Below are positions 13,793 to 58,253 of a stretch of DNA of 64,000 nt, piece by piece; position 1 is the stretch's first letter; every line of letters starts with the position of its first letter. This DNA comes from a bacterium. GTDB taxonomy: Bacteria; UBP6; UBA1177; JAKLFG01. A program made the translations under genes and the position numbers. The stretch is taken from assembly GCA_022711315.1 (NCBI GenBank), contig JAKLFG010000003.1:23890-87889 (forward strand), given 5' to 3'. Below the pieces are notes generated by a model. The model searched no databases. It saw nothing but the letters and a program-made list of their open reading frames with translations, and was not told the DNA's origin.

Positions 13793-15337
13793 ATGAAACG
13801 AAGTGCACTCTGCCTTTTTTGTCTGTGTCTTACCGGCCTGATCGCGGCCTGCGATTCTTCGACCGCCCACAAGGACGCCGACACCGTCGGCGCATCGGAC
13901 ACCGACACCGTCGCGACCGACGAACTCACCGGCGACACCACCATCACCGACGGGCCGGTAACGGACACTGATGCCCCCCTTCCCGACCTATCGACCGACG
14001 ACGATACCCCGGCGACCGACGAACTCGTGACCGATACCGATGCCCCCGGGAGCGACGAACTGCTGACCGACACCGACGGGTATATCAACCCCGCCTGCTC
14101 TTCCGTCGGCGAGACCTGCGTCACCGGCATCGACTGCTGTTCCGGCGCCTGCGAGAAGAACCCGATCGGCGACTTCGTCTGCATCGATGCGGAACTTTGC
14201 GAGCCGGTGGGCGGCGACTGCACGGTGGCGGCCGACTGCTGTTCGCTCGGCTGCGACGGCACGACATGCATCGATTCTCTCTGCCTGGTCACCAACGACC
14301 CGTGCATCGACGACGCCGAATGCTGTTCCAACCGCTGTGAGGTCAATTTCTGCGCGAGCGGCGGCGCCTGCCTTCCCGTCGGCGAGGATTGTTCGACGGG
14401 CGGCTCGACAAGTTGCTGTTCGATGAACTGCGCCGAGGCATCGGACGGCAAGATGCGCTGTATGGGAATCGGGGTCTGCCGTTCCGAGGGCGAGGTCTGC
14501 AGCGAGGACAGCGACTGTTGCAATTACCAGTGCACCGCCGAAGGGTTCTGTCTGGTGCAGCAGGAATGCGATGTCGCCGGCGAGGCATGCAACGACCCGA
14601 AGGCCTGCTGCAGCGGCGTATGCGCCGATGACGGCAGCGGCTATAAATTCTGCCAGTCGCTCGGTGGGTGCAAGGTGTTCGGCGAATTGTGCCACACCGA
14701 TGCCGAGTGCTGTAACAACCCGGCCAACGGCGGTCCCGGCGTCTGCGCCGAGGTCGCGGAAGGGATAGGCCGTTGCGAGAACCCGACCGGCTGCGCACCG
14801 GCGGGCGAACTGTGCGGCGAGGGCTACCACGACTGCTGTCCCTGCGCGACGCCACAGGATTCGCCGGGGTGCCCGAACGACAACGGCGACCTGTTCTGTC
14901 AGGAGACGATATTCGGCATATCGCGCTGTTTCTCGGCCAACTGCGTCATCGAGGGTGGTCCCTGCGATTCGAACGACGATTGCTGCGGCGGCAACTGCAA
15001 CGAGGAGAACACCTGCGGCCCCGGGATCGAGTGCCTTCCCAACCTCTCCCCCTGCGCCATGCCCGACCAGTGCTGCTGCAACATCTGCGCGCCGGACGGG
15101 AACGGCGATCTGGTCTGCTGCCCCGGCGACATCGAATGCATCCCCGAGGGCGAACACTGCACGACCGACCTCGACTGCTGTTCGGGCAACTGCAGCGTCA
15201 ACGGCATCTGCGGACCCGACATATCCGACTGCATCCCGGTCGGCGGCGAATGCGAGAAGGATGAGGATTGCTGTTCCGGCTCCTGCTATGAGGTGACCGG
15301 CACCTGCAATAGCCCGTTCTTCTTTTTCGTCTATTGA
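13793..15337 (+). CDS. Secreted lipoprotein: acidic D/T linker plus about 13 tandem six-cysteine (C-C-CC-C-C) knottin/Dickkopf-like modules
   Basis: Signal CLCLTGLIAAC, a DTDTV-rich linker, then repeated C-x4-6-C-x5-6-CC-x3-C-x4-10-C units (e.g. CEPVGGDCTVAADCCSLGCDGTTC). Confidence 0.7.
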   Translation: MKRSALCLFCLCLTGLIAACDSSTAHKDADTVGASDTDTVATDELTGDTTITDGPVTDTDAPLPDLSTDDDTPATDELVTDTDAPGSDELLTDTDGYINPACSSVGETCVTGIDCCSGACEKNPIGDFVCIDAELCEPVGGDCTVAADCCSLGCDGTTCIDSLCLVTNDPCIDDAECCSNRCEVNFCASGGACLPVGEDCSTGGSTSCCSMNCAEASDGKMRCMGIGVCRSEGEVCSEDSDCCNYQCTAEGFCLVQQECDVAGEACNDPKACCSGVCADDGSGYKFCQSLGGCKVFGELCHTDAECCNNPANGGPGVCAEVAEGIGRCENPTGCAPAGELCGEGYHDCCPCATPQDSPGCPNDNGDLFCQETIFGISRCFSANCVIEGGPCDSNDDCCGGNCNEENTCGPGIECLPNLSPCAMPDQCCCNICAPDGNGDLVCCPGDIECIPEGEHCTTDLDCCSGNCSVNGICGPDISDCIPVGGECEKDEDCCSGSCYEVTGTCNSPFFFFVY

Positions 15338-15368: not shown

Positions 15369-16691
15369 ATGAAAAGGATCGTATTACTGTGGACAGGTGC
15401 CTGCCTGATGTTCCTTGTTGCGGCCTGCGACACGGAAAATGACGCTGCGGCCGACCATGAGGCGGCCGATGCCGACAGCGCCGTCACCGACGAACTGGTG
15501 ACCGACGCCGACACCGTCTCCTCCCCTATCGTCGAGCAGACCTTCGGTGCTTTTGCGCCATGGTCCTCCCCCATCGAGGATTTTCGTTCGTTCGGTGTTG
15601 ACAACATGATAGAGGGCTTCACGCAGGAGGTGACCGACCTCGCCGTTCTCGACGGCCGGCTCTGGTTCGGCTACGGCGACGCGAACCTCAATTTCGGCAC
15701 GAAGATGATAAAGTACGCCGGCGGCGGCATCCAGTTCCGCTACTTCGACAGCCCCGACGACGCGCAGGCGAAGGGCGATCTCTGGAGCGGCGACGAGATG
15801 ATCGAGCATTTCCGTGTCTTTGACGGCGACCTCTGGTATGCCGGGGTCGATTCGACCGATCAGGACGAACTCACCTCGCGGCCGCTCATCGGCGGCAACT
15901 TCTACCGCCACGATGACGACGGCTGGAAGAAGTTCCGCTCCGTCCCCGGCGGGGAGCATGTCCACGACGCCGCCTTCTTCGACGGCCGCATCTTCACCGT
16001 CGGTTCGGGGGCGACCGACCGCACCGAATGGGAGGCGGGCAACATCTTCCGCTATCTCTGGGAGTCGTCCGACCGCGGCGAGACCTTCACCGTGACCCAC
16101 CGCATCGGCCATCCGACGCAGGGCGGCGCGGGCGATTCGCGCTTCGTCCATCTCCTGCCGGTGGGCGACACGATGTATGTCTTCGGCTACTGGAGCGACT
16201 TCGCGGCGAATCAGGCCTATGTCGCCAACGCTTATTACGACGGCGAGACGGTGACCGAATTTACCGCCGAGGATACGAGCATCATCAAGGGGATCTGGCC
16301 GACCGCGACCCTGCCGCTGCCCAACGACACGGGGCTGGTGTGGGGCGTCAATGTCGACACGGCGACGCTCAAGTATCAGATCTGGCAGGTGGCGGCCGAC
16401 GGGACGGCCACGGCGCTCGACGCCTTCGCCGGGAAGCAGGTGTTCGATGTGGGCTACTATCCCGATACCGAAGAACTGCTTTACCTCGTCTACGACAGCG
16501 ACGCCTACGCGGAACTCGTCGATCCGGTCGCGGTGACCGTCTATGCCGCGCCGCTCGCCGACCCGAACGATATCAAAGAGATAGCTACCTTCACCGACCC
16601 GACAGTGCACCTCGTCTCGCTCGCCTACTGGCAGGGATATCTCTTTGCCGGTACCAACGATTGCCGCATATTCCGGGCGAACGCCGAATAA
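15369..16691 (+). CDS. Secreted lipoprotein, acidic linker plus putative beta-propeller
   Basis: Signal ...FLVAAC, D/A/T linker, and repeated blade-like DGRLWFGYG / DGDLWYAGV / DGRIFTVGSG motifs. Confidence 0.6.
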   Translation: MKRIVLLWTGACLMFLVAACDTENDAAADHEAADADSAVTDELVTDADTVSSPIVEQTFGAFAPWSSPIEDFRSFGVDNMIEGFTQEVTDLAVLDGRLWFGYGDANLNFGTKMIKYAGGGIQFRYFDSPDDAQAKGDLWSGDEMIEHFRVFDGDLWYAGVDSTDQDELTSRPLIGGNFYRHDDDGWKKFRSVPGGEHVHDAAFFDGRIFTVGSGATDRTEWEAGNIFRYLWESSDRGETFTVTHRIGHPTQGGAGDSRFVHLLPVGDTMYVFGYWSDFAANQAYVANAYYDGETVTEFTAEDTSIIKGIWPTATLPLPNDTGLVWGVNVDTATLKYQIWQVAADGTATALDAFAGKQVFDVGYYPDTEELLYLVYDSDAYAELVDPVAVTVYAAPLADPNDIKEIATFTDPTVHLVSLAYWQGYLFAGTNDCRIFRANAE

Positions 16692-18416: not shown

Positions 18417-20765
18417 ATGAAGATCGTTCGCCTGTTCATCGTTCCCGTTTTTATCGTTTCTCTTCTTTTTGCCTGTAGCGAGAAGAAAAGCGACACCTTC
18501 ACGCCGAGAACGGCGAAAAAGACCGTCACGGCGGCCACGGGCGGCACCGTTTCGACGGCCGATGGCTCCGCATCGGTCGAGATACCGGCGGGCGCTCTTG
18601 CGCAGGACACCGAGATAACGATAACCGAGAAGAAGAAGGATGACTATCCCGAGGAGGAGAAACTGGCCAGTTCGGTCTGGCATTTCGGCCCCGACGGGCT
18701 GGTATTCGAAAAACCTATCACGATGAAGATCGATCTCGACCGCAACAAGGTGGAAGACGAGGTCGGCGTCATCGCGGTCCACCGCGAAGGGGCGTGGCAT
18801 TCTAAAGGCTATTCGGGGGGCGAGTACGCGGCGGGCGACCCCATCATGGCCGGTGACCCCATCATGGCCGGCGACCCCATCATGGCCGGCGACCCCATCA
18901 TGGCCGGCGACCCCATTATGTCGCAGGTGGGGCACTTCTCCGATTTCGCGATCTATGTGAGGGACAAGAACGATATCGGCCTGACCTGTGAGGAGATATA
19001 CGATTGCGCAGTACCGTGCGGTAACGACTTCGAGTGCATGAATGCCTGCAAGGCAGAGGGAAGCGTCAACGCGCAACCATTGTTCCAGGCACTGGTCGAT
19101 TGCTGGATGGAGAATTGCGACGCCGCCTGCGGCGACGGCGATCCGATCGCGTGCGACGCCTGCGCCTCCGAGAACTGCGCCTCTGAACTCGCCGCGTGCG
19201 GTGTCACACTCGGCGCCGACAGCGACACGACCGGTCGTGACGATATCGCGACCGACGATATCGCGACCGACGACATCCTGCCCGACGCCGATACGGTCAA
19301 GAACCCCGACGACCTGCTGGGCGAATGGGAGTTCACGACCGATAACGCCCATGTATCGGTTATGAAGGGCGAGACCGACGATTATATGCTCGACATCAGT
19401 TTCAACAGCACCGAGGAGTTCTACTACTCGCACGCCGGCACTTTCGACGGCTACACCTACACCGGCGATTATACCTACTGGGACGGCTCGACCGAGAAAA
19501 CGGCGGCGATGACGGTCGTCTTCACCCTGACCGGACCCAACACCGTGAATGTCGAGATAACGGCCGAGGCGCCGATGGGTAACCGGACGCTCACCGGCGG
19601 GGTACGCGCGGTCTACGATGAGGACAGCATCCTGCCCGATAGCGATACGGTCGGCCCGGTCTGCGGCAACACGGTGGTGGAGAGCGGCGAGACCTGCGAC
19701 AGCACCACGACCGCCTGCGCCGATTCGCTCTCGGGATCGACCGGCACCATCTACTGCTGCGCCGAGACCTGCAGTTGGAACATGGACCGCTGTGTGACCG
19801 ACAGTGTTTGCTATGGCGGCTCCTTCTACCAGTATGTTTCGACCTTCGACCTGTGCGTCAGGATCGGCACCGGCGTACCGCCGACCGAACAGATGGGGTG
19901 CTACGATGCGACGGGACCCATCTCCTGTCCGTTGGCAGCCGAAGCCTTCGCGGGGCAGGATGCGCAGTATTTCGGCGGCAAGACCAAAATGCTCGCGTCC
20001 TATTCAGAATCGGTCTACGATCAGCAGACCGGTCTTTCGTGGCAGAGAACCTTCGCGAGCGACTACTCGCTGGACGGCTATTGCGCCTCCGTGGACGGCT
20101 GCACCTGGGCCGAGGCGCAGTCCTTCTGCGCAGCACAGAACTGGGAGGGAGTGAGCGACTGGCGTCTGCCGACCGACCGCGAGATCGACACCATACTGCA
20201 CTTCGGCATGGAACCGATGTTCGATCCCGATTTTTTCCAGAACATCCCGGCGAACTACGGCCTCTGGACCACGATCGAGGTCCCCGATATGACCGGATAC
20301 GCCTATCAGGTCTATACCCATTCGGGCGCTTTCGAACCCTATGACCAGACGGCGGTCGCCAAAGTGCTCTGCGTAAGCGGCACCTACTATCAGCCGCTGA
20401 TGCAGGCGCTTTCCCTACTGCACGATAACGACCCGGTATGGTATGACGAGACGACCGGCCTGATGTGGGCTCCGGTGTCCAACACCATGGCGACATGGGA
20501 AAATGCGCTCGCCGAGTGCCTTATCTCGACCTATGCCGGCTACGACGACTGGCGTCTGCCAACCGCCAACGAACTGCGGACCATCTACGATCTGTCGGTG
20601 GGCGAATTCAGCGGGACCGAATTTCCCGGAGACTGGCAGGTGGAGCAGTGGACCTCCACGACCGCCGGGTATTCCCCCGAGGCGGCCTATGTAGTGAACG
20701 GGATGGTCGGTGCGCGCTATCCGATGTACAAACTAAATCCCGGCGGCGTCCGCTGCGTGCGGTAA
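18417..20765 (+). CDS. Secreted lipoprotein with (AGDPIM)5 tandem repeat, Cys-rich region and two DUF1566 (Lcl C-terminal-like) domains
   Basis: Signal ...SLLFAC. The two DUF1566 domains are TGLSWQ...WAEAQSFC...DWRLPTDREIDTIL and TGLMWAP...WENALAEC...DWRLPTANELRTIYD. Confidence 0.7.
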   Translation: MKIVRLFIVPVFIVSLLFACSEKKSDTFTPRTAKKTVTAATGGTVSTADGSASVEIPAGALAQDTEITITEKKKDDYPEEEKLASSVWHFGPDGLVFEKPITMKIDLDRNKVEDEVGVIAVHREGAWHSKGYSGGEYAAGDPIMAGDPIMAGDPIMAGDPIMAGDPIMSQVGHFSDFAIYVRDKNDIGLTCEEIYDCAVPCGNDFECMNACKAEGSVNAQPLFQALVDCWMENCDAACGDGDPIACDACASENCASELAACGVTLGADSDTTGRDDIATDDIATDDILPDADTVKNPDDLLGEWEFTTDNAHVSVMKGETDDYMLDISFNSTEEFYYSHAGTFDGYTYTGDYTYWDGSTEKTAAMTVVFTLTGPNTVNVEITAEAPMGNRTLTGGVRAVYDEDSILPDSDTVGPVCGNTVVESGETCDSTTTACADSLSGSTGTIYCCAETCSWNMDRCVTDSVCYGGSFYQYVSTFDLCVRIGTGVPPTEQMGCYDATGPISCPLAAEAFAGQDAQYFGGKTKMLASYSESVYDQQTGLSWQRTFASDYSLDGYCASVDGCTWAEAQSFCAAQNWEGVSDWRLPTDREIDTILHFGMEPMFDPDFFQNIPANYGLWTTIEVPDMTGYAYQVYTHSGAFEPYDQTAVAKVLCVSGTYYQPLMQALSLLHDNDPVWYDETTGLMWAPVSNTMATWENALAECLISTYAGYDDWRLPTANELRTIYDLSVGEFSGTEFPGDWQVEQWTSTTAGYSPEAAYVVNGMVGARYPMYKLNPGGVRCVR
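18831..18920 (+). repeat. Perfect in-frame tandem repeat, 5 x 18 bp (gc[cg]gg[ct]gaccccat[ct]atg) encoding AGDPIM
   Basis: Read directly from the sequence, five consecutive units. Confidence 0.9.
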
Positions 20766-45209: not shown

Positions 45210-46586
45210 ATGAAAAAGACCGTGTTCGACATCGGCCTGCTCGTCTACGGCGCCGCCGCCTATTTCGGCTATCTCGTCGTCGTCGTTTTCGTGCTCAAGG
45301 ACCGTTACGACATCGGACTCTATCTTTTTTCCGTCCCGTTCCTCTACGCCATATTCCGCGTACTCAGCGCCCGGATAAAGCGGGCGTCGCTCCTCACCGC
45401 GATCTATCTCGCGCTCCCCTTTTTCCTTTCGGTCTACCTGTCGCTGACGGGGCGACCGGCCGTCTGGGAGGTCACCGGGATACTGCCGGTCACCGCTCTT
45501 CTATCGTTCGCCTTGAGGTCAGAAAAGAGTTCGTCACCGCTTTTCACGAAACTGCTCTCCCCGGTGTGGACGCTCTTCTTCCTGCTCATACTGTCCCTGC
45601 CGGCCGTCAACTATCTCAACAACCGCGACCTGCCCCGTGCGCTCCAACTCCTCCTCTCCATCTACACCCCCGCCATCACCCTCTCCACGCTCGCGGTGTT
45701 CCTCCGTTTCGTCATAGAGACCGCGAGCCTCAATATGGCGCTCAACAATTTCCGACTGTTCATCCACGGCGCCCGCATCGACCGGGTGGTGTTCGATCCG
45801 GCCGACTTCCTTTCGCTCTCGCAGACGAGTCTTTCGGGCATCGTGACCGGCCCGACGATGTCGCGCGAACAGTTCCTGAAAAAGGTGGAACTGCTCAATC
45901 GCGAGTTCGTATCCGCCGAAGACGGCGTGGACGCCATGAAACGGGACGCGAAATTCAGCCGGACGCTCCCCGACGGCACCGAACTCACGCTCGCGCCGAT
46001 CGCCCTGCTTGTCCGCGAAGGTTTTCTCACCGACGGCCTGCCGCCGGCCCCCGAAGACCCGAAAAGGTCTTATGTGGCGCTGGCGGAAGGACGCCGCGTC
46101 ATCGGCTACTATGTGGTCGATCGCTTCGATCCCACCGCCAACCGGACGATGATAGATGTCCTGCGGGAGAAATATGCGGTGCCGGTGGTCATCGTGGGCG
46201 GCGAAGAACTGAAAAAGCGGTTCCCCGGCGCGCTCGTCGTCTCGCGACAAGAGGACATCACGCTCGACAACCGCGATCTGCTCGTCACGCAGGACCCGCC
46301 CGAGAAGAGCCCCGCCATCGTCATGGCGTGGGGCAAAAAGAATGTGGACGCCGGCGACATATTCCTCGCCGACCCCTCGCTCCTCAACATCATGCGGCTC
46401 GTGCTCGTGCTCGGCGGCGTCAGGGGACGCCTCTACCGCAGCATGGCCGTATCGTCGCTCCCCTTCCTGTTGCCCCTGTTCCTTTCGATATACCGGCTAC
46501 ATATCCCGCAGATCAACGCGGTCGCGGTCCTCATCATGATACTGCTCATCATGACGCAGACCTTCCGGAGCATGAAGGCGGAATAA
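45210..46586 (+). CDS. Integral membrane protein, unknown function (N-terminal TM helices plus soluble domain plus C-terminal TM)
   Basis: Hydrophobic segments. No recognisable motif. Confidence 0.5.
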   Translation: MKKTVFDIGLLVYGAAAYFGYLVVVVFVLKDRYDIGLYLFSVPFLYAIFRVLSARIKRASLLTAIYLALPFFLSVYLSLTGRPAVWEVTGILPVTALLSFALRSEKSSSPLFTKLLSPVWTLFFLLILSLPAVNYLNNRDLPRALQLLLSIYTPAITLSTLAVFLRFVIETASLNMALNNFRLFIHGARIDRVVFDPADFLSLSQTSLSGIVTGPTMSREQFLKKVELLNREFVSAEDGVDAMKRDAKFSRTLPDGTELTLAPIALLVREGFLTDGLPPAPEDPKRSYVALAEGRRVIGYYVVDRFDPTANRTMIDVLREKYAVPVVIVGGEELKKRFPGALVVSRQEDITLDNRDLLVTQDPPEKSPAIVMAWGKKNVDAGDIFLADPSLLNIMRLVLVLGGVRGRLYRSMAVSSLPFLLPLFLSIYRLHIPQINAVAVLIMILLIMTQTFRSMKAE

Positions 46587-46595
46587 TCTTATCCG

Positions 46596-46745
46596 CCGCC
46601 ATCCCGCCCTGTCACTGTAGGCCGTCCCGGACGAGACTGTGGTACAGTGTCGACAGGCCGGAAGCCGCAGCATTCATGCGAGGTAAGGGTTGGGTGGGTT
46701 TTATTAAAAACGGGAGATCACTTCGCGCACCGGAAGCCGAAGTAG
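46596..46745 (-). repeat. Copy 1 of a conserved ~150-bp 3'-end/3'-flank element (last codons FGFRCAK plus ~120 nt structured downstream region)
   Basis: About 90% identical by eye to 47889-48035. Contains an interrupted 12-bp inverted repeat (cctgtc-gac-actgta ... tacagtgacagg). Confidence 0.8.
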
Positions 46746-47653
46746 TCGGCGATGCTACCCTCGCCAACGTCGACGCGAGAGGACGCGCGCAAGTAGATCA
46801 AGTAGATGACAAGGTCGTGGCGCCACGACCCACCGCGCATCACGCGACCATCACCGGTTTCTGGCCCCGTGGGGTTGTTTGTAGGCGACGAAGTGTAGTA
46901 ATCCTCATCATACCGGTCGTTCACCCACTCCCAAACATTCCCTATCATGTCGTGGGCGCCGTAGGGCGATACGCCGTTCGGCTTGCTTCCTACCGGCATC
47001 GTGCCGTCGGTGCCACAACCCTCGCCGCCAGCATCGTCATCGTCCATGACGGCATAATCGCACGATACGGCCGGGGTATCACCCCACGGATATTTCCTGC
47101 CGTCGGTCCCTCTGGCCGCTTTTTCCCATTCCGCCTCGGTCGGTAGGCGACCGCCTATCCACTCGCAGTAGGCCTTCGCCCCGTACCAAGACAGGCAATT
47201 CATGGGATGATTGTCCCTATCGGGTGCCCCGAGGTTGCAATAGGGGATGTCGGTGTTTGTGTAATAGTGCGGTTCATTCTCGTTGCTATTATTGCAGGTG
47301 CCGTTGGTCACGCACTGCTGGTATTCACCGACGGTCACTTCGTATTTGCCGATCTTGTAGGCCGAGAGCGTCACTGCATGGTACGGGGATTCATCACCCT
47401 CGCATTGATCATCCACCGCCTCGTTACACCCCATCCAGAATTCACCGGCGGGGACTTCCACCATCTCCCCCGGCGTACCAGTGTTTCCCCCCGTGTCGGC
47501 ATCGGGCTGTTCCGTGTCGGGGATCGTTGAATCGTTGGTCACCGTATCGTTGATCACCGTGTCGGTGTCGGGCGTTTCGGTCCCGTCATCGCCACAGGAA
47601 ACGATGAAAAGAACCGCCATCATCACAAGAAGGCCGCTCAATATGCCTTTCAT
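46718..47653 (-). CDS. FGE-sulfatase (SUMF1/EgtB/PvdO-fold) domain lipoprotein, copy 1
   Basis: Lipobox ...LFIVSC. GNVWEWVND and RVMRGGSW motifs of PF03781-type domains. Confidence 0.75.
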   Translation of the reverse strand: MKGILSGLLVMMAVLFIVSCGDDGTETPDTDTVINDTVTNDSTIPDTEQPDADTGGNTGTPGEMVEVPAGEFWMGCNEAVDDQCEGDESPYHAVTLSAYKIGKYEVTVGEYQQCVTNGTCNNSNENEPHYYTNTDIPYCNLGAPDRDNHPMNCLSWYGAKAYCEWIGGRLPTEAEWEKAARGTDGRKYPWGDTPAVSCDYAVMDDDDAGGEGCGTDGTMPVGSKPNGVSPYGAHDMIGNVWEWVNDRYDEDYYTSSPTNNPTGPETGDGRVMRGGSWRHDLVIYLIYLRASSRVDVGEGSIADYFGFRCAK

Positions 47654-47888
47654 GCTTCTCCTCCTTCCGTCGGTTGATGAAAAACGCTATGAATCGATCG
47701 TTTGTTTTGAAGAAATATTTTTACAGACAGACAGCAATCGGTGTACCGTAATAACCCGTCAGAACAGGAAAAAATCATCGTTCGCCTCATAGAAGACAGC
47801 GGAATTATAACAAGCGGAGATGAAAAGACAAGAAAAGGTAGGATCGCACAAACCCCCTCATTCCCCCTTGACAGAGAGAGGGGGACGA

Positions 47889-48035
47889 CCGCCATCCCGC
47901 CCTGTCACTGCAGGCCGTCCCGGACGAGACTGTGGTACAGTGTCGACAGGCCGGAAGCCGCAGCATTCATGCAAGGTAAGGGCAGGGAGGATTTTACAAA
48001 CGGGAGATCACTTCGCGCACCGGAAGCCGTAGTGG
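47889..48035 (-). repeat. Copy 2 of the conserved 3'-end/3'-flank element
   Basis: See copy 1. Confidence 0.8.
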
Positions 48036-48994
48036 GGACCGTAACTGTCCGGGCTAGCATAACTGCGGTAGGACGATCGCATATCGAAGCCGTCGCTATA
48101 GGCATACCACGATCCGCCGCGCAACACGCGGACAACACCCGTTTCTGGCCCTGCGGGGTTGTCTGTAGGCGATGAGGCATAGTAATTCCACGCATACCAG
48201 TCGTTCACCATCTCCCATACATTGCCCGCCATGTCATAGGCACCGTAGGGGCTTTTGCCTGCCTCCTTGCTTCCTATCGGCATGGTTCCGTCTCTACTGC
48301 ATCCATCCTCAGTTATGACCGCGTAATCGCAGGTCACGTCTTCGTTGCCCCACGGGTACTTTCTACCGTCGGTGCCCCGCGCCGCCTTTTCCCATTCCGC
48401 CTCGGTCGGCAATCTGCCGCCTATCCATTCGCAGTAGGCCTTCGCGCCGTACCATGTCACGCATTGCATCGGGTGATTCCCTTTTTCTTCCGCACCGAGG
48501 TTGCAATCGGATTCGTCGGTGTTTGTATAGTGGTGCGGTTCGTTCTCGTTACTGTTGTTGCACGCACCATTAGTCACGCACTGCTGGTACTCACTGACGG
48601 TCACCTCGTACTTGCCGATCTGGTAGGCCGAGAGCGTTACCGCGTGATAGGGAGATTCATCATCTTCATCATCTTCGCCGCATTGATTATCCACCGCCTC
48701 GTTGCATCCCATCTGGAATTCTCCGGCGGGGACTTCCACCATCTCCGGCGGGGTGCCGGTCCCGTAGTCAACATCGGGCTGTTCGGTGTCGGTCACGGCT
48801 GTGTCCTTGTCGGGCGTCTCGGTCGGATCAACGCACACATTCGACAGACACACGAGGTCGCCGTCGCAGGTGCCGTTCCCGTAACAGTCGCCCCCTTTCG
48901 ACCCCATCGCCGGTTCTTTCGTCCCGTCCTCGCCGCAGGCAACGACGAAAAGAACCGCCATCATCACAAGAAGGCCTCTCAAGATGCCTTTCAT
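48008..48994 (-). CDS. FGE-sulfatase domain lipoprotein, copy 2 (paralogue with extra Cys-rich N-segment)
   Basis: Lipobox ...LFVVAC. Same GNVWEMVND and RVLRGGSW motifs. N-terminal signal region nearly identical to the 46718 and 50189 genes. Confidence 0.75.
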   Translation of the reverse strand: MKGILRGLLVMMAVLFVVACGEDGTKEPAMGSKGGDCYGNGTCDGDLVCLSNVCVDPTETPDKDTAVTDTEQPDVDYGTGTPPEMVEVPAGEFQMGCNEAVDNQCGEDDEDDESPYHAVTLSAYQIGKYEVTVSEYQQCVTNGACNNSNENEPHHYTNTDESDCNLGAEEKGNHPMQCVTWYGAKAYCEWIGGRLPTEAEWEKAARGTDGRKYPWGNEDVTCDYAVITEDGCSRDGTMPIGSKEAGKSPYGAYDMAGNVWEMVNDWYAWNYYASSPTDNPAGPETGVVRVLRGGSWYAYSDGFDMRSSYRSYASPDSYGPHYGFRCAK

Positions 48995-49070
48995 ACTTCT
49001 CCTCCTTCCATCGGTTAAGATCTTACAGGGAACAGGGTATTGTAGCGGAGCAAAGGGGACAAAGGGACGC

Positions 49071-49433
49071 TCACAAACAATAAGGGTTGTTCATATAACA
49101 AAGTTCCATGTCGGATTCCTCGTCAAGATCGCAACCCAACGATCTCACACAATTAACAAACCCTTTTGCTTTTCCGGCATTAAAACTCCCCTCACCGAAG
49201 CACGGATACCCTTCTTCGCTGGTATTGGTTTCCCAACAATCCTGTTTGCATTCCTCCATGCCGGAAGGATACTCCGAGTCAAACTCATCGGTTCGACAGG
49301 TTTGCGCCCACGGACAGATCGTAGCGCAATAATCTGTTACAAAACTCTCCCCTGAGTAGTCGTCCTTGTCGCAGGAAACAAATGCGAACGAGAGGAAAAG
49401 AAGCAGAACGAGGGCATATCTCTGTGGCTTCAT
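49071..49433 (-). CDS. Small Cys-rich secreted lipoprotein (about 120 aa)
   Basis: Start at internal Met MKPQRYALVLLLFLSFAFVSC (lipobox). 10 Cys in the mature part. Confidence 0.5.
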   Translation of the reverse strand: MKPQRYALVLLLFLSFAFVSCDKDDYSGESFVTDYCATICPWAQTCRTDEFDSEYPSGMEECKQDCWETNTSEEGYPCFGEGSFNAGKAKGFVNCVRSLGCDLDEESDMELCYMNNPYCL

Positions 49434-49462
49434 GTCAGCACTCCCGATCCTAAGAAAAGTTA

Positions 49463-50083
49463 TCAAAACTTGTACGCGATGCCGAACAACGCATTAAAAT
49501 TACCGTTGGTGAAGTTATCCGCATAAGGAACATCCTTCGCCACTCCCAAAAAGCCAAAACCAAAACGAAGATCCCCGGTGACAAAAAGATTGTCGACCAC
49601 CTCGTAAAAGACCTCAGCACCAAAGATAATCCCTAGATCGAAAATGTCGAGGGAGTCGGTGATGTCGACCTCAACCCCGGAGCCACTCGCAGTCGCTTTC
49701 ATGAGAATGGAAAGGTCAAGCCCGCCGTAGGGCTGTATCAATATCGGAGAAACATCGAAGACCCCCTTCAGCAGTAGCGGCACAGAGAAGTAATGCAGAA
49801 TGCCACGAGCATCCATATCCTTGACGCCATACCCCTTCATTTCATAACCGAGTTCGGCCTGGAAAGCCAGATAGTCCATAAAGCGGTACATCGCCGAAAG
49901 GCTCAGCCCCATACCGACGGCGGCCTCTGTACCTCTAGCCCCCTCTCCTAGAACAAAAGCGGCTCCGGGACCGATCTTTGCCCCGGCAAAAAAGCCTTTG
50001 GGATCCTTTTCTTCTTCGGCAAGCAGAGCGTTCGAACAAAGCAAGGCGCACAGAACAAACGCTGAAACAAAGAATTCTCTCAT
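49463..50083 (-). CDS. Outer-membrane beta-barrel protein (OmpW/OmpA-like small porin family)
   Basis: Signal peptide, alternating amphipathic strands, C-terminal ...GIAYKF (terminal Phe). Confidence 0.6.
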   Translation of the reverse strand: MREFFVSAFVLCALLCSNALLAEEEKDPKGFFAGAKIGPGAAFVLGEGARGTEAAVGMGLSLSAMYRFMDYLAFQAELGYEMKGYGVKDMDARGILHYFSVPLLLKGVFDVSPILIQPYGGLDLSILMKATASGSGVEVDITDSLDIFDLGIIFGAEVFYEVVDNLFVTGDLRFGFGFLGVAKDVPYADNFTNGNFNALFGIAYKF

Positions 50084-50188
50084 GATGTTCCTCCTCTGGC
50101 GAAATGGATTAGTGATCGCAACCTGTTCTATCCCTCATTCTTTCGTTGAAGTTCTAATCGGTGCGCACATCAATATACTCTCCAACAT

Positions 50189-50686
50189 TTATGTTCCGGC
50201 ATCCCGGACACAACGGGCATTGATTTCATCGTCACGATTCGCGTGGTAAACGCCTCCATTCTGAAAGAAAATCTCCCATGCCATGTCGGGGAGTTCTGAC
50301 ACCAACGAAGAAGACCAGAATTCACTGGAATCGTCCAATCTGGAATGGGTAACATCTTCCTCTTCCTCGGGGCAACCGTCACAATCGAAACTCCAGCAAG
50401 AAGACGACAAACAACCATCACTGGCCCTGCATGAGCCACCGAGGGCCGTCTTCGAACAGTCTTTTATCAACGACCGCAACTCTGAAATAGTGGGTAAGCG
50501 CCAATCATCATGCCCCTCTTCAACAAGATCTTCACAATAGACAATAGCATCGTATTGAGTTATGCCGGACTTTTCTTGTGACCACTGCTTATTCGTCATT
50601 TCCGTTTCTTTCGTCTCGTCCTCGCCACAGGCAACGACGAAAAGAACCGCCATCATCGCAAGAATGCCGCTCAAGAGTCCTTTCAT
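50189..50686 (-). CDS. DUF1566 (Lcl C-terminal-like) domain lipoprotein sharing the 5' module with the FGE lipoproteins
   Basis: Lipobox ...LFVVAC. DDWRLPTISELRSLI motif. Confidence 0.65.
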   Translation of the reverse strand: MKGLLSGILAMMAVLFVVACGEDETKETEMTNKQWSQEKSGITQYDAIVYCEDLVEEGHDDWRLPTISELRSLIKDCSKTALGGSCRASDGCLSSSCWSFDCDGCPEEEEDVTHSRLDDSSEFWSSSLVSELPDMAWEIFFQNGGVYHANRDDEINARCVRDAGT

Positions 50687-50752
50687 ACTTCTCCTCCTTC
50701 CATCGGTTGATGAAAAACGCTATGAATCGATCGATAGTTTTGAGAGGTTACG

Positions 50753-50780
50753 AGACAGACAGACAGACAGACAGACAGAC
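50753..50780. repeat. (GACA)7 tetranucleotide microsatellite in the 5' leader of the 50189-50686 gene
   Basis: Read directly. The homologous position upstream of the 46718-47653 gene (47720-47732) carries only 2-3 units. Confidence 0.9.
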
Positions 50781-50897
50781 AGCAATTAATATACCGTAAC
50801 ATATCGTCAAAACAGGGGAAAATCATCGTCCGTCTCCCAAGCAACAGAGGCATGATAACAAAAATAAAAGTCTATGGCAAAAAAAATCGAAGGAATG

Positions 50898-51818
50898 TTA
50901 TTTGTGACCCGACAGGTACCGTTCCGCGGCGGTCGCCGCCGCCGCGCCGTCGCCGACGGCCGTCGCCACCTGATAGACTATCTTTTCGACCACATCGCCC
51001 GCCGCGAAAAGTCCTGGGGTGCCGGTCGTGCCGTCGGGATTCAATGCAATTCGTCCGGTCGGTGACAGCGTCACGAGGTGCTTGACCGGCTCTGTCTGCG
51101 GCGTGTAGCCGACGAAGACGAACACGCCGTCGAATGGATGATCGCTCATCTCGCCGCTTTTGACATTCTTCACGGTGACCGACTCGACGAAATCCTTGCC
51201 CGTTATCTTTTCGACGACACTCTCGAGCATCAGTTTGATCTTGGGGTGCTTCCGAACTTCGTCCTGTATTATCTTTTCGGCGCGGAACTCGTTGCGCCGA
51301 TGGATGATGACCACCTCCGAGGCGAAACGCGTGAGGTAGATCGCCTCCTTGAGCGACGAATCGCCGCCGCCGACCACCGCCACCCGCAGGTTGCGGTAGA
51401 AGGCACCGTCGCACACCGCGCAGTAGGAAACGCCGCGCCCGACGAACTCCATCTCGCCCGGGACATCGATCCTGCGCGGCGACGAACCGGCGGCCCAGAT
51501 GACGCTCCGCGCCGACACCTCGCCACCATCGGAAGTGAGGCGAAAGCCCTCCGCCGTCCTCTCGACCTTCGTCACCGTTCCCATCATCATCTGCGCCCCG
51601 AAACGGAGCGCCTGCTTGAACATCAGTTCCGACAGGTCGCCCCCGCTCACCGTCTCATGACCGGGATAGTTCTCCAACTTGTCAGTGAGCGCCATGAGCC
51701 CGCCGATGGCCCCTTTCTCGAAGATGACGGTCGAAAGCATCGCGCGGCCCAGATAGATAGCGGCGGTGAGCCCGGCCGGCCCGCCTCCGACGATAGCGAC
51801 ATCATACCTCTGCGACAT
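50898..51818 (-). CDS. trxB: Thioredoxin-disulfide reductase
   Basis: YDVAIVGGGPAGLTAAIY and the CAVC active site. Start at the internal Met MSQRYD. Confidence 0.9.
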   Translation of the reverse strand: MSQRYDVAIVGGGPAGLTAAIYLGRAMLSTVIFEKGAIGGLMALTDKLENYPGHETVSGGDLSELMFKQALRFGAQMMMGTVTKVERTAEGFRLTSDGGEVSARSVIWAAGSSPRRIDVPGEMEFVGRGVSYCAVCDGAFYRNLRVAVVGGGDSSLKEAIYLTRFASEVVIIHRRNEFRAEKIIQDEVRKHPKIKLMLESVVEKITGKDFVESVTVKNVKSGEMSDHPFDGVFVFVGYTPQTEPVKHLVTLSPTGRIALNPDGTTGTPGLFAAGDVVEKIVYQVATAVGDGAAAATAAERYLSGHK

Positions 51819-56450: not shown

Positions 56451-58253
56451 ATGCGTGGTGTCGTGTTCTTATTCACCTTTTTGTCGCTTTTACTGATTTC
56501 CTGCGATAATCAGGTGGCGCAGCGCCCCGAGGCGCACAGCGACCAGGACACCGTAGGCCCTGACGACATCGGTGACTTCCCTCTGCTTGCCGACGAGTGG
56601 CAGAACGACTTCCCTCCGACCGAGAGCGAGGCTCCCCTCGCCGATCAGGACCCCTTCATGCCGCCGGACGACACCACCGACAACGCGTCGGATGACACCA
56701 CCGACAACGCGTCGGACGACACCACCGACACCGTACCCGATGATATCCCCGACGAGACGACCGACGAAACGACCGACCATGGACCGGACGAGACCACCGA
56801 CGAGACCACCGACGAGGTTCCCGACGAGATGAACGACGAGGCCAGCGACAGCATGCCGGAGGAGGATCCCGACCTTGATGAGGCGGTCATCGACGATGCT
56901 CCCGTCGAAGATGACCCGCTTCCCGACGACACGGTCATCCCGCCCGACCCCGATATCATACCGGAGACCGATATCTTGCCCGAGCCCGATCAATCCCTCC
57001 CCGATCTCGACATCCCGTTCCCCGAAAGCGACATACTTCCCGAAACCGATGTCCTGCCCGAATACGACCTTCTACCGGAACCGGATGGCACCTTCCCCGA
57101 GCAAGATGTCCTGCCGGAGTCCGACATCGTGATGCCGGAGCCCGATCAGCCACTTCCCGACCCCGACATGTTACCCGATCCCGATCCCGATACCGATACC
57201 GTCACACCCGACATCGACATTGTGTCCGACGCCTGCACCGTTGACGGCGACTGCACCTTCGGATACCGCTGCGATACCACCACATCGCCTCGCGCCTGCC
57301 TCTTTGCGAGCACCTGCGACAACGATTTCGACTGTCAGAACTACCAGACCTGTCAGGTGGTCGGCAACTGGAAGGAATGTCGCTTCGACCTGAGCGACAG
57401 TTGCGAGACCGATGCCGACTGCGCGCCGGGCGAGGTCTGCGAGACGGTCATCCTCGGCTACAAGGTCTGCCGTTCCATGAACAAATGCCTCACGAGCGAA
57501 GAATGCGCCGCGAATGAGGTCTGTGACTGGACCGGCTCCTACTACGACTGCGTCGCGGTCTGCACGGTCGACACCGACTGCGCATTCGGCTACCAATGCA
57601 TCGCCGGAACCCCCTACAACCAGTGCGAGTACGCCAACGAGTGTCAGAATGACGCCGATTGCCCCGCCTTCCGGACCTGCGAACCGTCAGGCAACTGGAT
57701 GCAGTGCATCCTCTCACTCGGCGGTGGCCTCTGCCTGAATGACACGAACTGCGACCCGAGCGAATACTGCGATCTTTCACTCGGCTTTTTCGGGACCTGC
57801 AAATCGCGGGACCAGTGCGCCATGGACGCCGACTGCGGCGACAATATGATCTGCGAATTCAACGGCACCTACAACGAATGCGTTCCGACGAATCCGAAGC
57901 AGTGCCTGTTCGACTTCCAGTGTCCGGACGGCTGGATATGCGCCGATAATGTCTGCACTCCTCAGTACGCCGGCGCCTGCGCCGAGATCGAGGGGATGTG
58001 GCAGGTGCTCATCAGCACCTCGTTCCTCTTCACGCAGGGAAATTCCTACGAGTTCATACCCAAGGACGGTTGCGCCGGATCGGTAAGACCGGAAGGTCAA
58101 TCGGTCGCGACCGGCAGTTTCTCACAGACGGCGGCGAAACAGTATGATATCACCATGCTCCTGTTCTTCGACTGCGAGGCGTCGATAACGCTGAACGCCG
58201 TCATGCAGGTGACCTGCCCGAGCGGCAGCGCGACGCTTATACGGAGCAACTGA
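56451..58253 (+). CDS. Secreted lipoprotein: very long acidic P/D/E/T linker with tandem nucleotide repeats, then ~9 tandem 4-Cys 'DC..G..C' modules
   Basis: Lipobox ...LLLISC. DDTTDNASDDTTDNAS repeats. Modules such as CETDADCAPGEVC...C and CLFDFQCPDGWIC. Confidence 0.7.
   Translation: MRGVVFLFTFLSLLLISCDNQVAQRPEAHSDQDTVGPDDIGDFPLLADEWQNDFPPTESEAPLADQDPFMPPDDTTDNASDDTTDNASDDTTDTVPDDIPDETTDETTDHGPDETTDETTDEVPDEMNDEASDSMPEEDPDLDEAVIDDAPVEDDPLPDDTVIPPDPDIIPETDILPEPDQSLPDLDIPFPESDILPETDVLPEYDLLPEPDGTFPEQDVLPESDIVMPEPDQPLPDPDMLPDPDPDTDTVTPDIDIVSDACTVDGDCTFGYRCDTTTSPRACLFASTCDNDFDCQNYQTCQVVGNWKECRFDLSDSCETDADCAPGEVCETVILGYKVCRSMNKCLTSEECAANEVCDWTGSYYDCVAVCTVDTDCAFGYQCIAGTPYNQCEYANECQNDADCPAFRTCEPSGNWMQCILSLGGGLCLNDTNCDPSEYCDLSLGFFGTCKSRDQCAMDADCGDNMICEFNGTYNECVPTNPKQCLFDFQCPDGWICADNVCTPQYAGACAEIEGMWQVLISTSFLFTQGNSYEFIPKDGCAGSVRPEGQSVATGSFSQTAAKQYDITMLLFFDCEASITLNAVMQVTCPSGSATLIRSN

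Follow-up and report, generated by a model that had tools for sequence, protein, structure and literature searches.

The window considered here, by which we mean the whole stretch of 64,000 nucleotides (64 kb) of bacterial DNA that was analysed, carries a group of genes on the minus strand, several of them coding for lipoproteins, and, ahead of one of these genes, a perfect tetranucleotide tract. The gene layout, as obtained from the ORF list, the Pfam matches and the genes called on public contigs, is the following:

50898-51818/51875, minus strand: TrxB-like oxidoreductase gene, upstream of the tract-bearing intergenic region
Between the TrxB-like and Lcl_C genes: intergenic region of 211 nt, which holds the tract
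50189-50686, minus strand: Lcl_C (DUF1566) lipoprotein gene, 165 aa (Pfam E = 3e-16), with signal peptide MKGLLSGILAMMAVLFVVAC before G and lipobox VVAC before G
49463-50083, minus strand: OMP_b-brl (OMP beta-barrel) gene (ORF list, Pfam)
49071-49433, minus strand: 120-aa ORF (ORF list)
48008-48994, minus strand: FGE-sulfatase lipoprotein gene 1 (ORF list, Pfam)
46718-47653, minus strand: FGE-sulfatase lipoprotein gene 2, behind a second intergenic leader

The Lcl_C gene is likely the first of an operon that also comprises the OMP_b-brl gene, the 120-aa ORF and FGE-sulfatase lipoprotein gene 1. No homolog of the Lcl_C protein above 48% identity was found, and the exact protein is alone in its cluster. 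The nearest genomes, as judged by TrxB (75-80% identity), are unclassified MAGs, some of them labelled 'uncultured Spirochaetales bacterium'. An orthologous leader was not found in these genomes, where the whole block between 46.6 and 50.9 kb is missing; in two of the contigs (L011 and L014), the TrxB gene is directly followed by the ortholog of window positions 45210-46586 (58% identity). Since it is missing from the nearest related genomes, the five-gene block at 46590-50900 (Lcl_C, OMP, the 120-aa ORF and the two FGE-sulfatase genes) constitutes an insertion specific to the lineage, made up of genes for predicted lipoproteins and outer-membrane proteins.

Two observations made outside the window concern the same protein domains. 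A 599-aa protein found on three Logan contigs (P0152) is a fusion of Lcl_C (PF07603) and FGE-sulfatase (PF03781), the two domains that, in the window, are encoded by separate genes behind shared leaders. In two JGI metagenomes (L041/L042, positions 1-1001), a Transposase_mut (PF00872) gene lies directly upstream of the FGE-sulfatase lipoprotein homolog P0024, which hints that such lipoprotein genes are located in mobile or rearranging regions.

The tract ahead of the Lcl_C gene has a shorter counterpart ahead of FGE-sulfatase lipoprotein gene 2:

50753-50782, minus strand: perfect tetranucleotide tract, (CTGT)7.5 on the gene strand, equivalent to (AGAC)7.5 or (GACA)7 on the plus strand
47723-47734, minus strand: short homologous tract, (CTGT)3, equivalent to (ACAG)3 on the plus strand; on the gene strand ATTGC-(TGTC)2-TGT, with 2.75 TGTC units

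Tandem Repeats Finder reports the longer tract with period 4, 7.5 copies, 100% matches and a score of 60, and finds no other period-4 array in the 64-kb window. On the gene strand the tract reads ATTGC-(TGTC)7-TCGTAACC, and it is flanked by unique sequence on both sides (TATATTAATTGC and TCGTAACCTCTC). An SSR census of the window retrieved two other tetranucleotide tracts, with three units each, one of which is the homologous tract of the second leader. A TTCG x3 tract is located at 15583-15594. In shuffled windows (n=200), the longest tetranucleotide tract reached 16 nt twice and was of 8-12 nt in the other 198 cases, as compared to 28-30 nt in the real window. The tract is, in consequence, perfect and far beyond chance expectation, and the (GACA)7 repeat that the earlier note described at this place is real, apart from a shift of one position (GACA x7 occupies 50754-50781, and not 50753-50780). 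The distance from the end of the tract to the ATG of the Lcl_C/DUF1566 lipoprotein gene (50686) is 66 nt, in agreement with the approximately 65 nt given before. An assembly artefact is excluded, because nine contigs from nine samples, with different assembler-type names (MEGAHIT-style, SPAdes-style and JGI), agree on the same sequence.

The leader in which the tract is embedded is shared with the FGE-sulfatase gene starting at 47653, which, according to Pfam, codes for an FGE-sulfatase-domain lipoprotein and not for a DUF1566 protein. Aligned over their full length (alignment A1), the two leaders are 82% identical overall, with 76% identity upstream of the tract and 86-90% in the downstream block through the signal peptide (around 90% for the RBS and signal peptide). 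A block of 31 nt is 100% identical in both (50703-50733 and 47670-47700), and an exact 30-mer occurs twice in the window. The conservation of the leader between the two genes, which had been claimed for the gene at 46718, is confirmed by this alignment, as is the presence of a shorter tract in the paralogous leader (two to three units against seven), given that the three units at 47723-47734 fall in the same alignment columns as the long tract. The net length difference between the two leaders is 15 nt. The gene at 48994 has only the RBS and signal-peptide part of the leader in common with them. When an exact 24-mer of the conserved block was searched for, no match was obtained in genome contigs and a single one in metagenome contigs, corresponding to the paralogous copy of the same clone.

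Sequence sharing among these genes also extends beyond the tract-bearing leaders. The module formed by the RBS and the lipoprotein signal peptide is approximately 90-92% identical, at the DNA level, in three genes (47575-47710, 48910-49016 and 50602-50743), while the mature parts behind it either bear no relationship to each other, as in the case of Lcl_C and FGE-sulfatase, or have no more than 77-80% identity; a copy with 80-82% identity precedes a homolog in another metagenome (L028, positions 1487-1574). As this pattern suggests, the 5' modules may have been shuffled as cassettes or subjected to gene conversion. At the other end of the FGE-sulfatase genes, the last 40 nt plus 108 nt of 3' flank (46596-46743 and 47889-48033) are 94-95% identical, against 77-80% in the gene interiors, and the 3' flank contains a GC-rich imperfect hairpin whose fold is modestly better than that of shuffled sequences (z = -1.1 and -1.3). 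These near-identical 3' ends could reflect gene conversion or a 3' element.

In order to place the tract relative to the transcription signals, the region 46400-51100 was scanned for promoters. The predicted features are:

50852-50880, minus strand: predicted sigma-70-type promoter, with -35 TTGCCA (50880-50875), a 17-nt spacer and a TG-extended -10 TATCAT (50857-50852)
47804-47831, minus strand: paralogous predicted promoter, with TTGTCT, a 16-nt spacer and a TG-extended TATAAT
50687-50845, minus strand: predicted 5' UTR of about 159 nt, with an implied transcription start at about 50845
47654-47797, minus strand: paralogous predicted 5' UTR, preceding FGE-sulfatase lipoprotein gene 2

Both promoters have 10/12 matches plus the TG, rank joint top in the scan and occupy homologous positions (A1). 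The predicted promoter at 50880-50852 is the sole strong promoter-like site in the leader and lies 70 nt upstream of the tract; the scan returned no promoter-like site overlapping the tract or located between it and the RBS, so that, by this prediction, the tract does not serve as a -35 element or as a promoter spacer. Since the predicted promoter lies upstream of the tract, the latter would be located in the 5' UTR and outside the -35/-10 spacer, and it is predicted to be transcribed, with the start site derived from the promoter prediction. The possibility, contemplated before, that the repeat lies between -35 and -10 and changes the promoter spacing is, hence, not borne out. Along the predicted UTR, the order would be a conserved 5' block, the tract (at about +64 to +93), a variable stretch, the 31-nt block and the Shine-Dalgarno sequence AGGAGG (50693-50698).

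Some additional observations refer to this promoter region. Three public contigs from different samples (L006, L008 and L010) start at 50828, 50832 and 50848, respectively, near the predicted transcription start; since only an 11-mer is common with the paralog at 50828-50848, a repeat-induced assembly break is unlikely for them, and these starts may reflect transcript-derived assemblies or coincidence. A T8 run on the gene strand (50879-50886) abuts and overlaps the predicted -35 (TTTTTTTTGCCA) and does not occur in the paralogous promoter; a change in its length would leave the distance between -35 and -10 unaffected.

The -10 sequence TGTTATAAT is also kept in contigs L035 (included in alignment A2) and L036, and L032 carries the related TGCTACAAT. 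In several metagenomes, a near-identical promoter region, TTCTTGCCTTC...CCTGTTATAAT (with TGCTACAAT in L032), precedes FGE-sulfatase lipoprotein genes, at positions of approximately 1400-1500 in L032, 640-680 in L035 and 800-835 in L036, and is followed by a leader that is either long or very short. Given that the same promoter region occurs with leaders of both kinds, the promoter belongs to the shared cassette, in which the long leader is optional.

The stability of the tract in nature was evaluated with public contigs from many samples, collected via exact-protein look-ups. All of them are 100% identical to the window, with 0 SNPs over up to 6.5 kb, and all the public contigs of the locus hence represent one clone. 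Tract-spanning contigs were available for nine samples (ERZ27257480, ERZ27257481, ERZ27257498, ERZ27257499, ERZ795054, and JGI 3300025902, 3300028626, 3300028757 and 3300029627), and in 9/9 the tract has exactly 7 TGTC units, bearing in mind that these are consensus assemblies of one clone, in which minor alleles are invisible. The paralogous tract has 2.75 units in all of the four samples that cover it. The earlier note had proposed counting the units across metagenome samples; this count shows no difference in unit number between populations of the clone, either in the nine samples for the tract or in the four for its paralog, and the consensus allele of the tract in the clone is stable. A search of the literature with the sample accessions returned nothing, and the habitat and independence of the samples are undocumented.

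Three contig ends in this data set deserve mention. The beginning of L007 coincides with the 5' edge of the 31-nt block and that of L004 falls inside the RBS/signal-peptide region common to three genes, and both breaks look repeat-induced rather than due to heterogeneity of the tract. In L023 (ERZ795054 NODE_128806), positions 1-90 contain an apparent Illumina adapter joined to an FGE-sulfatase gene, in what seems to be a chimeric contig end.

The main new result of this work comes from the comparison with other organisms, in which the sequences point to a family of leaders bearing a tract at the same position. Homologous leaders (alignment A2) precede the genes of three FGE-sulfatase lipoprotein homologs whose signal peptides are related (MKRFLTVILAF..VLF.VSCG):

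L035 (JGI 3300044712): complete promoter and leader, with (TGTC)2-TC followed by TCGTAACG; 2.5 units
L034 (Logan SRR21537121): contig starting with 30 nt of perfect CTGT repeat, followed by TCGTAACG; at least 8 units
L033 (Logan SRR31359984): contig starting with 30 nt of perfect repeat, followed by two CCGT-interrupted units and 5.5 further units; at least 15 units, with flank TGTAAAAAC, which is of the type found in the window's second leader

We take the Logan contigs to be assemblies with k = 31 and, if so, the fact that L033 and L034 start with exactly k-1 = 30 periodic bases implies tracts longer than 30 nt. The family is known from five copies only, and the unit numbers found at this one leader position are 2.5, 2.75, 7.5, at least 8 and at least 15. 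The tract is followed by one of two flank types (TCGTAAC or TGTAAAAA), each of which occurs with short and long alleles. L034 and L035 are 85% identical over the 126 nt after the tract, with no indel, and yet they have at least 8 and 2.5 units, respectively; similarly, the two window copies are 86% identical after the tract and have 7.5 and 2.75 units. As each close pair of leaders combines a short and a long allele, the tract site has expanded or contracted repeatedly, and no other point of the leader comes close to it in its tendency to indels. Tracts with similar properties were not found in other FGE-sulfatase lipoprotein homologs (P0030, P0023, P0034, P0029, P0028 and P0024), whose leaders are short or different, and a second homolog search, seeded with P0031, yielded no new close relatives. 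Length instability, previously claimed on the basis of the two window leaders, holds as a change over evolutionary time that recurs in the family; it does not hold as evidence of high-frequency switching, given that the leaders compared are only 76-90% identical.

How such a tract should be regarded depends largely on its length. According to the cut-off used by PhasomeIt for candidate phase-variable loci (PMC5953494), a tetranucleotide must have at least 5 units within 200 bp of the ATG, and the tract, with 7.5 units at 66 nt, passes it, while the family as a whole straddles this cut-off, with members above and below 5 units. In a classification by repeat length (PMC4235727, Table 1), tetranucleotides of around 3-9 or 3-12 units are considered 'mutable' (1e-7 to 1e-5 per division) and those above 9-10 units 'hypermutable'. 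On this scale the tract is mutable, the paralog and L035 are proto-mutable and L033 is hypermutable by its total length, its perfect runs being interrupted.

These figures bear directly on the suggestion that the tract is a classic contingency locus, this is, a hypermutable site owing to which variants with the lipoprotein operon ON or OFF, or at high or low expression, are always present in the population. The length of the tract exceeds what the composition would predict, its distance to the start of a surface lipoprotein gene is below 200 bp (as in the PhasomeIt criteria, PMC5953494), long alleles recur at one site of a gene-family leader, and the genes belong to the five-gene lipoprotein/outer-membrane block that is missing from the nearest relatives. 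On the other hand, a single consensus allele was found in the 9 samples, 7.5 units is below the hypermutable range of tetranucleotides (PMC4235727), and a location outside both the promoter spacer and the main ORF offers no obvious binary mechanism. We consider a classic contingency locus rather unlikely on balance, so that, of the proposal made in the earlier note, what stands is a non-random tract above the length cut-off in a shared lipoprotein leader, and what does not is its assignment to the rapidly switching class.

At the opposite extreme, the tract may be a neutral microsatellite, in which a proto-repeat of 2.5-3 units, placed in the least constrained part of the UTR, grows by slippage bias without selection or use. 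Several results agree with this: the tract is located where the two window leaders diverge most (with an indel and replaced sequence), the alleles with 2.5 and 2.75 units show that the gene works without a long tract, the point interruptions in the L033 tract are like those of decaying microsatellites, no RNA structure or motif depends on the tract (see below), and there is a precedent for a variable upstream tetranucleotide with minimal effect on the mRNA (PMC7302503). What this reading does not easily accommodate is that three of the five leaders have 7 units or more, with nothing else above 3 units in approximately 183 kb. In this sequence (64 kb from the window and 119 kb from other loci), tetranucleotide tracts with at least 4 units were found in the leader family only, and bacterial genomes seldom keep such tracts without selection (PMC4235727). 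Neutrality is, in our opinion, a possible explanation that deserves to be taken seriously, even if tentatively.

Several well-characterized repeats located upstream of surface-protein genes help to delimit what the tract could do. The (AGAT)n repeat of Moraxella catarrhalis uspA2, as described in the passage of PMC7302503 that cites Attia and Hansen 2006, is located 132 bp upstream of the ORF, has 13-18 units and is associated with graded expression. Like the tract studied here, it is a tetranucleotide upstream of a surface protein ORF and outside the coding frame. Unlike it, uspA2 differs between strains and has had its effects on mRNA and serum resistance measured, whereas our tract, known from sequence alone, has 7.5 units, shows no variation between samples and belongs to an uncultured bacterium without known host association. 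In Neisseria meningitidis nadA, the (TAAA)n repeat lies upstream of the promoter, where it spaces the NadR/IHF operators and leads to graded expression (PMC2791445, PMC4235727); nadA codes for a surface adhesin and its tetranucleotide, like ours, does not form part of the core promoter, although our tract is downstream of the predicted promoter. A hypothetical permease gene of M. catarrhalis has a GTTC(n) repeat 68 bp upstream, a distance to the ATG nearly equal to the 66 nt observed here, with 6-27 units in five strains and an mRNA change of 1.2-1.4-fold (PMC7302503). This repeat varies and yet the mRNA barely moves, which means that variability need not imply function.

The shared 5' module itself has a parallel among the mycoplasmas, different in the nature of the repeat. 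The tract analysed here is a tetranucleotide in a predicted UTR, and the mature domains that follow the leaders are enzyme-like or adhesin-like (FGE-sulfatase, Lcl_C), unlike those of the vlp system of Mycoplasma hyorhinis. The latter is a family of lipoproteins with a shared module of promoter, 5' region and signal peptide and a simple repeat of variable length. In vlp, the -35 and -10 elements are separated by a poly(A) repeat, which causes ON/OFF switching.

A parallel in terms of location is provided by the (ATCTTTC)n repeats of Haemophilus influenzae hmw1A/hmw2A, which are transcribed in the 5' UTR of adhesin genes, where the repeat number acts after transcription initiation; the repeat pairs with a G-rich arm to give a long hairpin, which is cleaved by RNase III (PMC12721329). 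The tract is likewise predicted to be in a 5' UTR. Nevertheless, its unit has 4 nt instead of 7, the leader does not fold better than shuffled sequences, and no conserved complementary arm was found. In fact, when compared with shuffles, the leader RNAs show no decrease in minimum free energy (z = +0.53 for the tract leader and +1.26 for the paralog), and the inverted repeats present in the leaders are short and not common to both copies. The tract can pair partially with the upstream GAGACGGACGA, a partner that is not kept in the paralog. The fold z-scores and the non-conserved partner do not support a stable hairpin with a complementary arm, of the hmw type. Rfam searches, performed on the whole window at the gathering score and on 47600-50950 at E <= 1, gave no match to the leaders, and three tRNAs elsewhere. 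Taking the above systems as reference, we regard the tract as a plausible candidate for a contingency or rheostat repeat in a 5' UTR, which would add a member to the known group of upstream and 5'-UTR SSRs of surface-protein genes.

Another way in which the number of units could act is through translation. A candidate upstream ORF (uORF) crosses the tract:

50683-50826, minus strand: candidate upstream ORF of 47 codons, hypothetical, with ATG at 50826 after GGGAG and the tract read as CLSVCLSVCL

Its TGA stop overlaps the ATG of the lipoprotein gene (ATGA), an arrangement also found in the paralog. When a series of unit numbers was modelled, the stop of the uORF moved with period 3 among the positions +2, -35 and -63 relative to the ATG: with 1, 4, 7 or 10 units the ATGA overlap is formed, one more unit leads to a TAG 35 nt upstream and two more units to a TAA 63 nt upstream. 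The CTGT tract could then be conceived as a family-wide switch setting the frame of a translated uORF, in which one-unit slippage would cycle the translation of the lipoprotein operon through three states of translational coupling. Besides the three stop positions, this idea draws on uORFs that cross the tract in L035 and in the two window copies, starting in all three cases after an SD-like purine run and from similar positions of the leader, and on the 15-nt net difference between the window copies, which keeps the frame. However, an ATG ORF spanning the UTR occurs in 15% and 9% of the shuffles, which is chance level, and the substitutions between the paralogous uORFs amount to about 3 synonymous and 9 nonsynonymous (as read from the two translations). 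The uORF of L035 codes for an unrelated peptide, is in a different frame when homologous bases are compared and has its stop 36 nt upstream of the ATG, so that neither frame nor peptide is conserved. In addition, the flank of the L034/L035 type closes all three frames before the SD (as read from the sequence), and the uORF was not called by the gene callers on any contig. We know of no SSR phase-variation mechanism operating through the frame of a uORF, and the idea was set aside as very unlikely. Two antisense ORFs across the tract (50562-50789 and 50578-50799, plus strand) were considered to be spurious frames over the signal-peptide region.

Finally, the tract could constitute an array of sites for a DNA- or RNA-binding regulator (CTGTC or UGUC, respectively), with the number of units setting the occupancy. 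In favour of this are the periodic motif and its conserved position, and CTGTC may be likened to one half of certain response-regulator boxes. Nonetheless, the tract has neither a palindrome nor a 10-11-bp periodicity, hardly any site would be left in leaders with 2.5 units, and no regulator gene adjoins the locus. These features make a regulator array highly improbable.

The reading that we favour, with moderate confidence, is that of a slipped-strand hotspot in a transcribed leader, which changes at a low rate and whose effect, if any, is graded and exerted after initiation. In this proposal, an uncultured lineage would place a cassette formed by promoter, leader and signal peptide before its surface lipoprotein genes. 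The tract occupies one conserved position of the leader family, with a conserved block on its 5' side and another, close to the RBS, after it, and in close pairs the flanks of this site have few or no indels. Replication slippage would add or remove CTGT units and, with transcription from the promoter with the TG-extended -10 starting at about 50845, such changes would modify the leader of the mRNA while leaving the promoter spacing intact. For a tract of 7.5 units, a low rate would be expected, of approximately 1e-7 to 1e-5 per division, which fits the presence of one allele in all the nine sampled populations. If the length of the tract does matter, a graded post-initiation change in the expression of the Lcl_C-OMP-FGE operon, similar to that of uspA2, would be the most likely outcome, with a sharp ON/OFF response being less likely.

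As far as we are aware, repeat-driven phase variation is documented almost wholly in host-adapted pathogens (Haemophilus, Neisseria, Moraxella, Campylobacter, Helicobacter and Mycoplasma). If the tract varies expression, this strategy would extend to an unstudied uncultured lineage and to a poorly understood position, the 5' UTR. If there is no variation or effect, the site would still be a clear recurrent slippage hotspot, which should not be over-read as a switch. Given that the flanks are unique and that the tract is short enough to be contained in Illumina reads, the question can be answered cheaply from existing reads.

Repeats of a different kind are present elsewhere in the window, where in-frame tandem arrays rich in Asp, Thr and Pro codons were seen at 56638-57240, 18830-18920 and 13890-14080. 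The repeats at 56.6-57.2 kb have periods of 12, 24, 36 and 48 nt, and at 18830-18920 there are five copies of 18 nt; these arrays probably encode low-complexity linkers of secreted proteins or lipoproteins.
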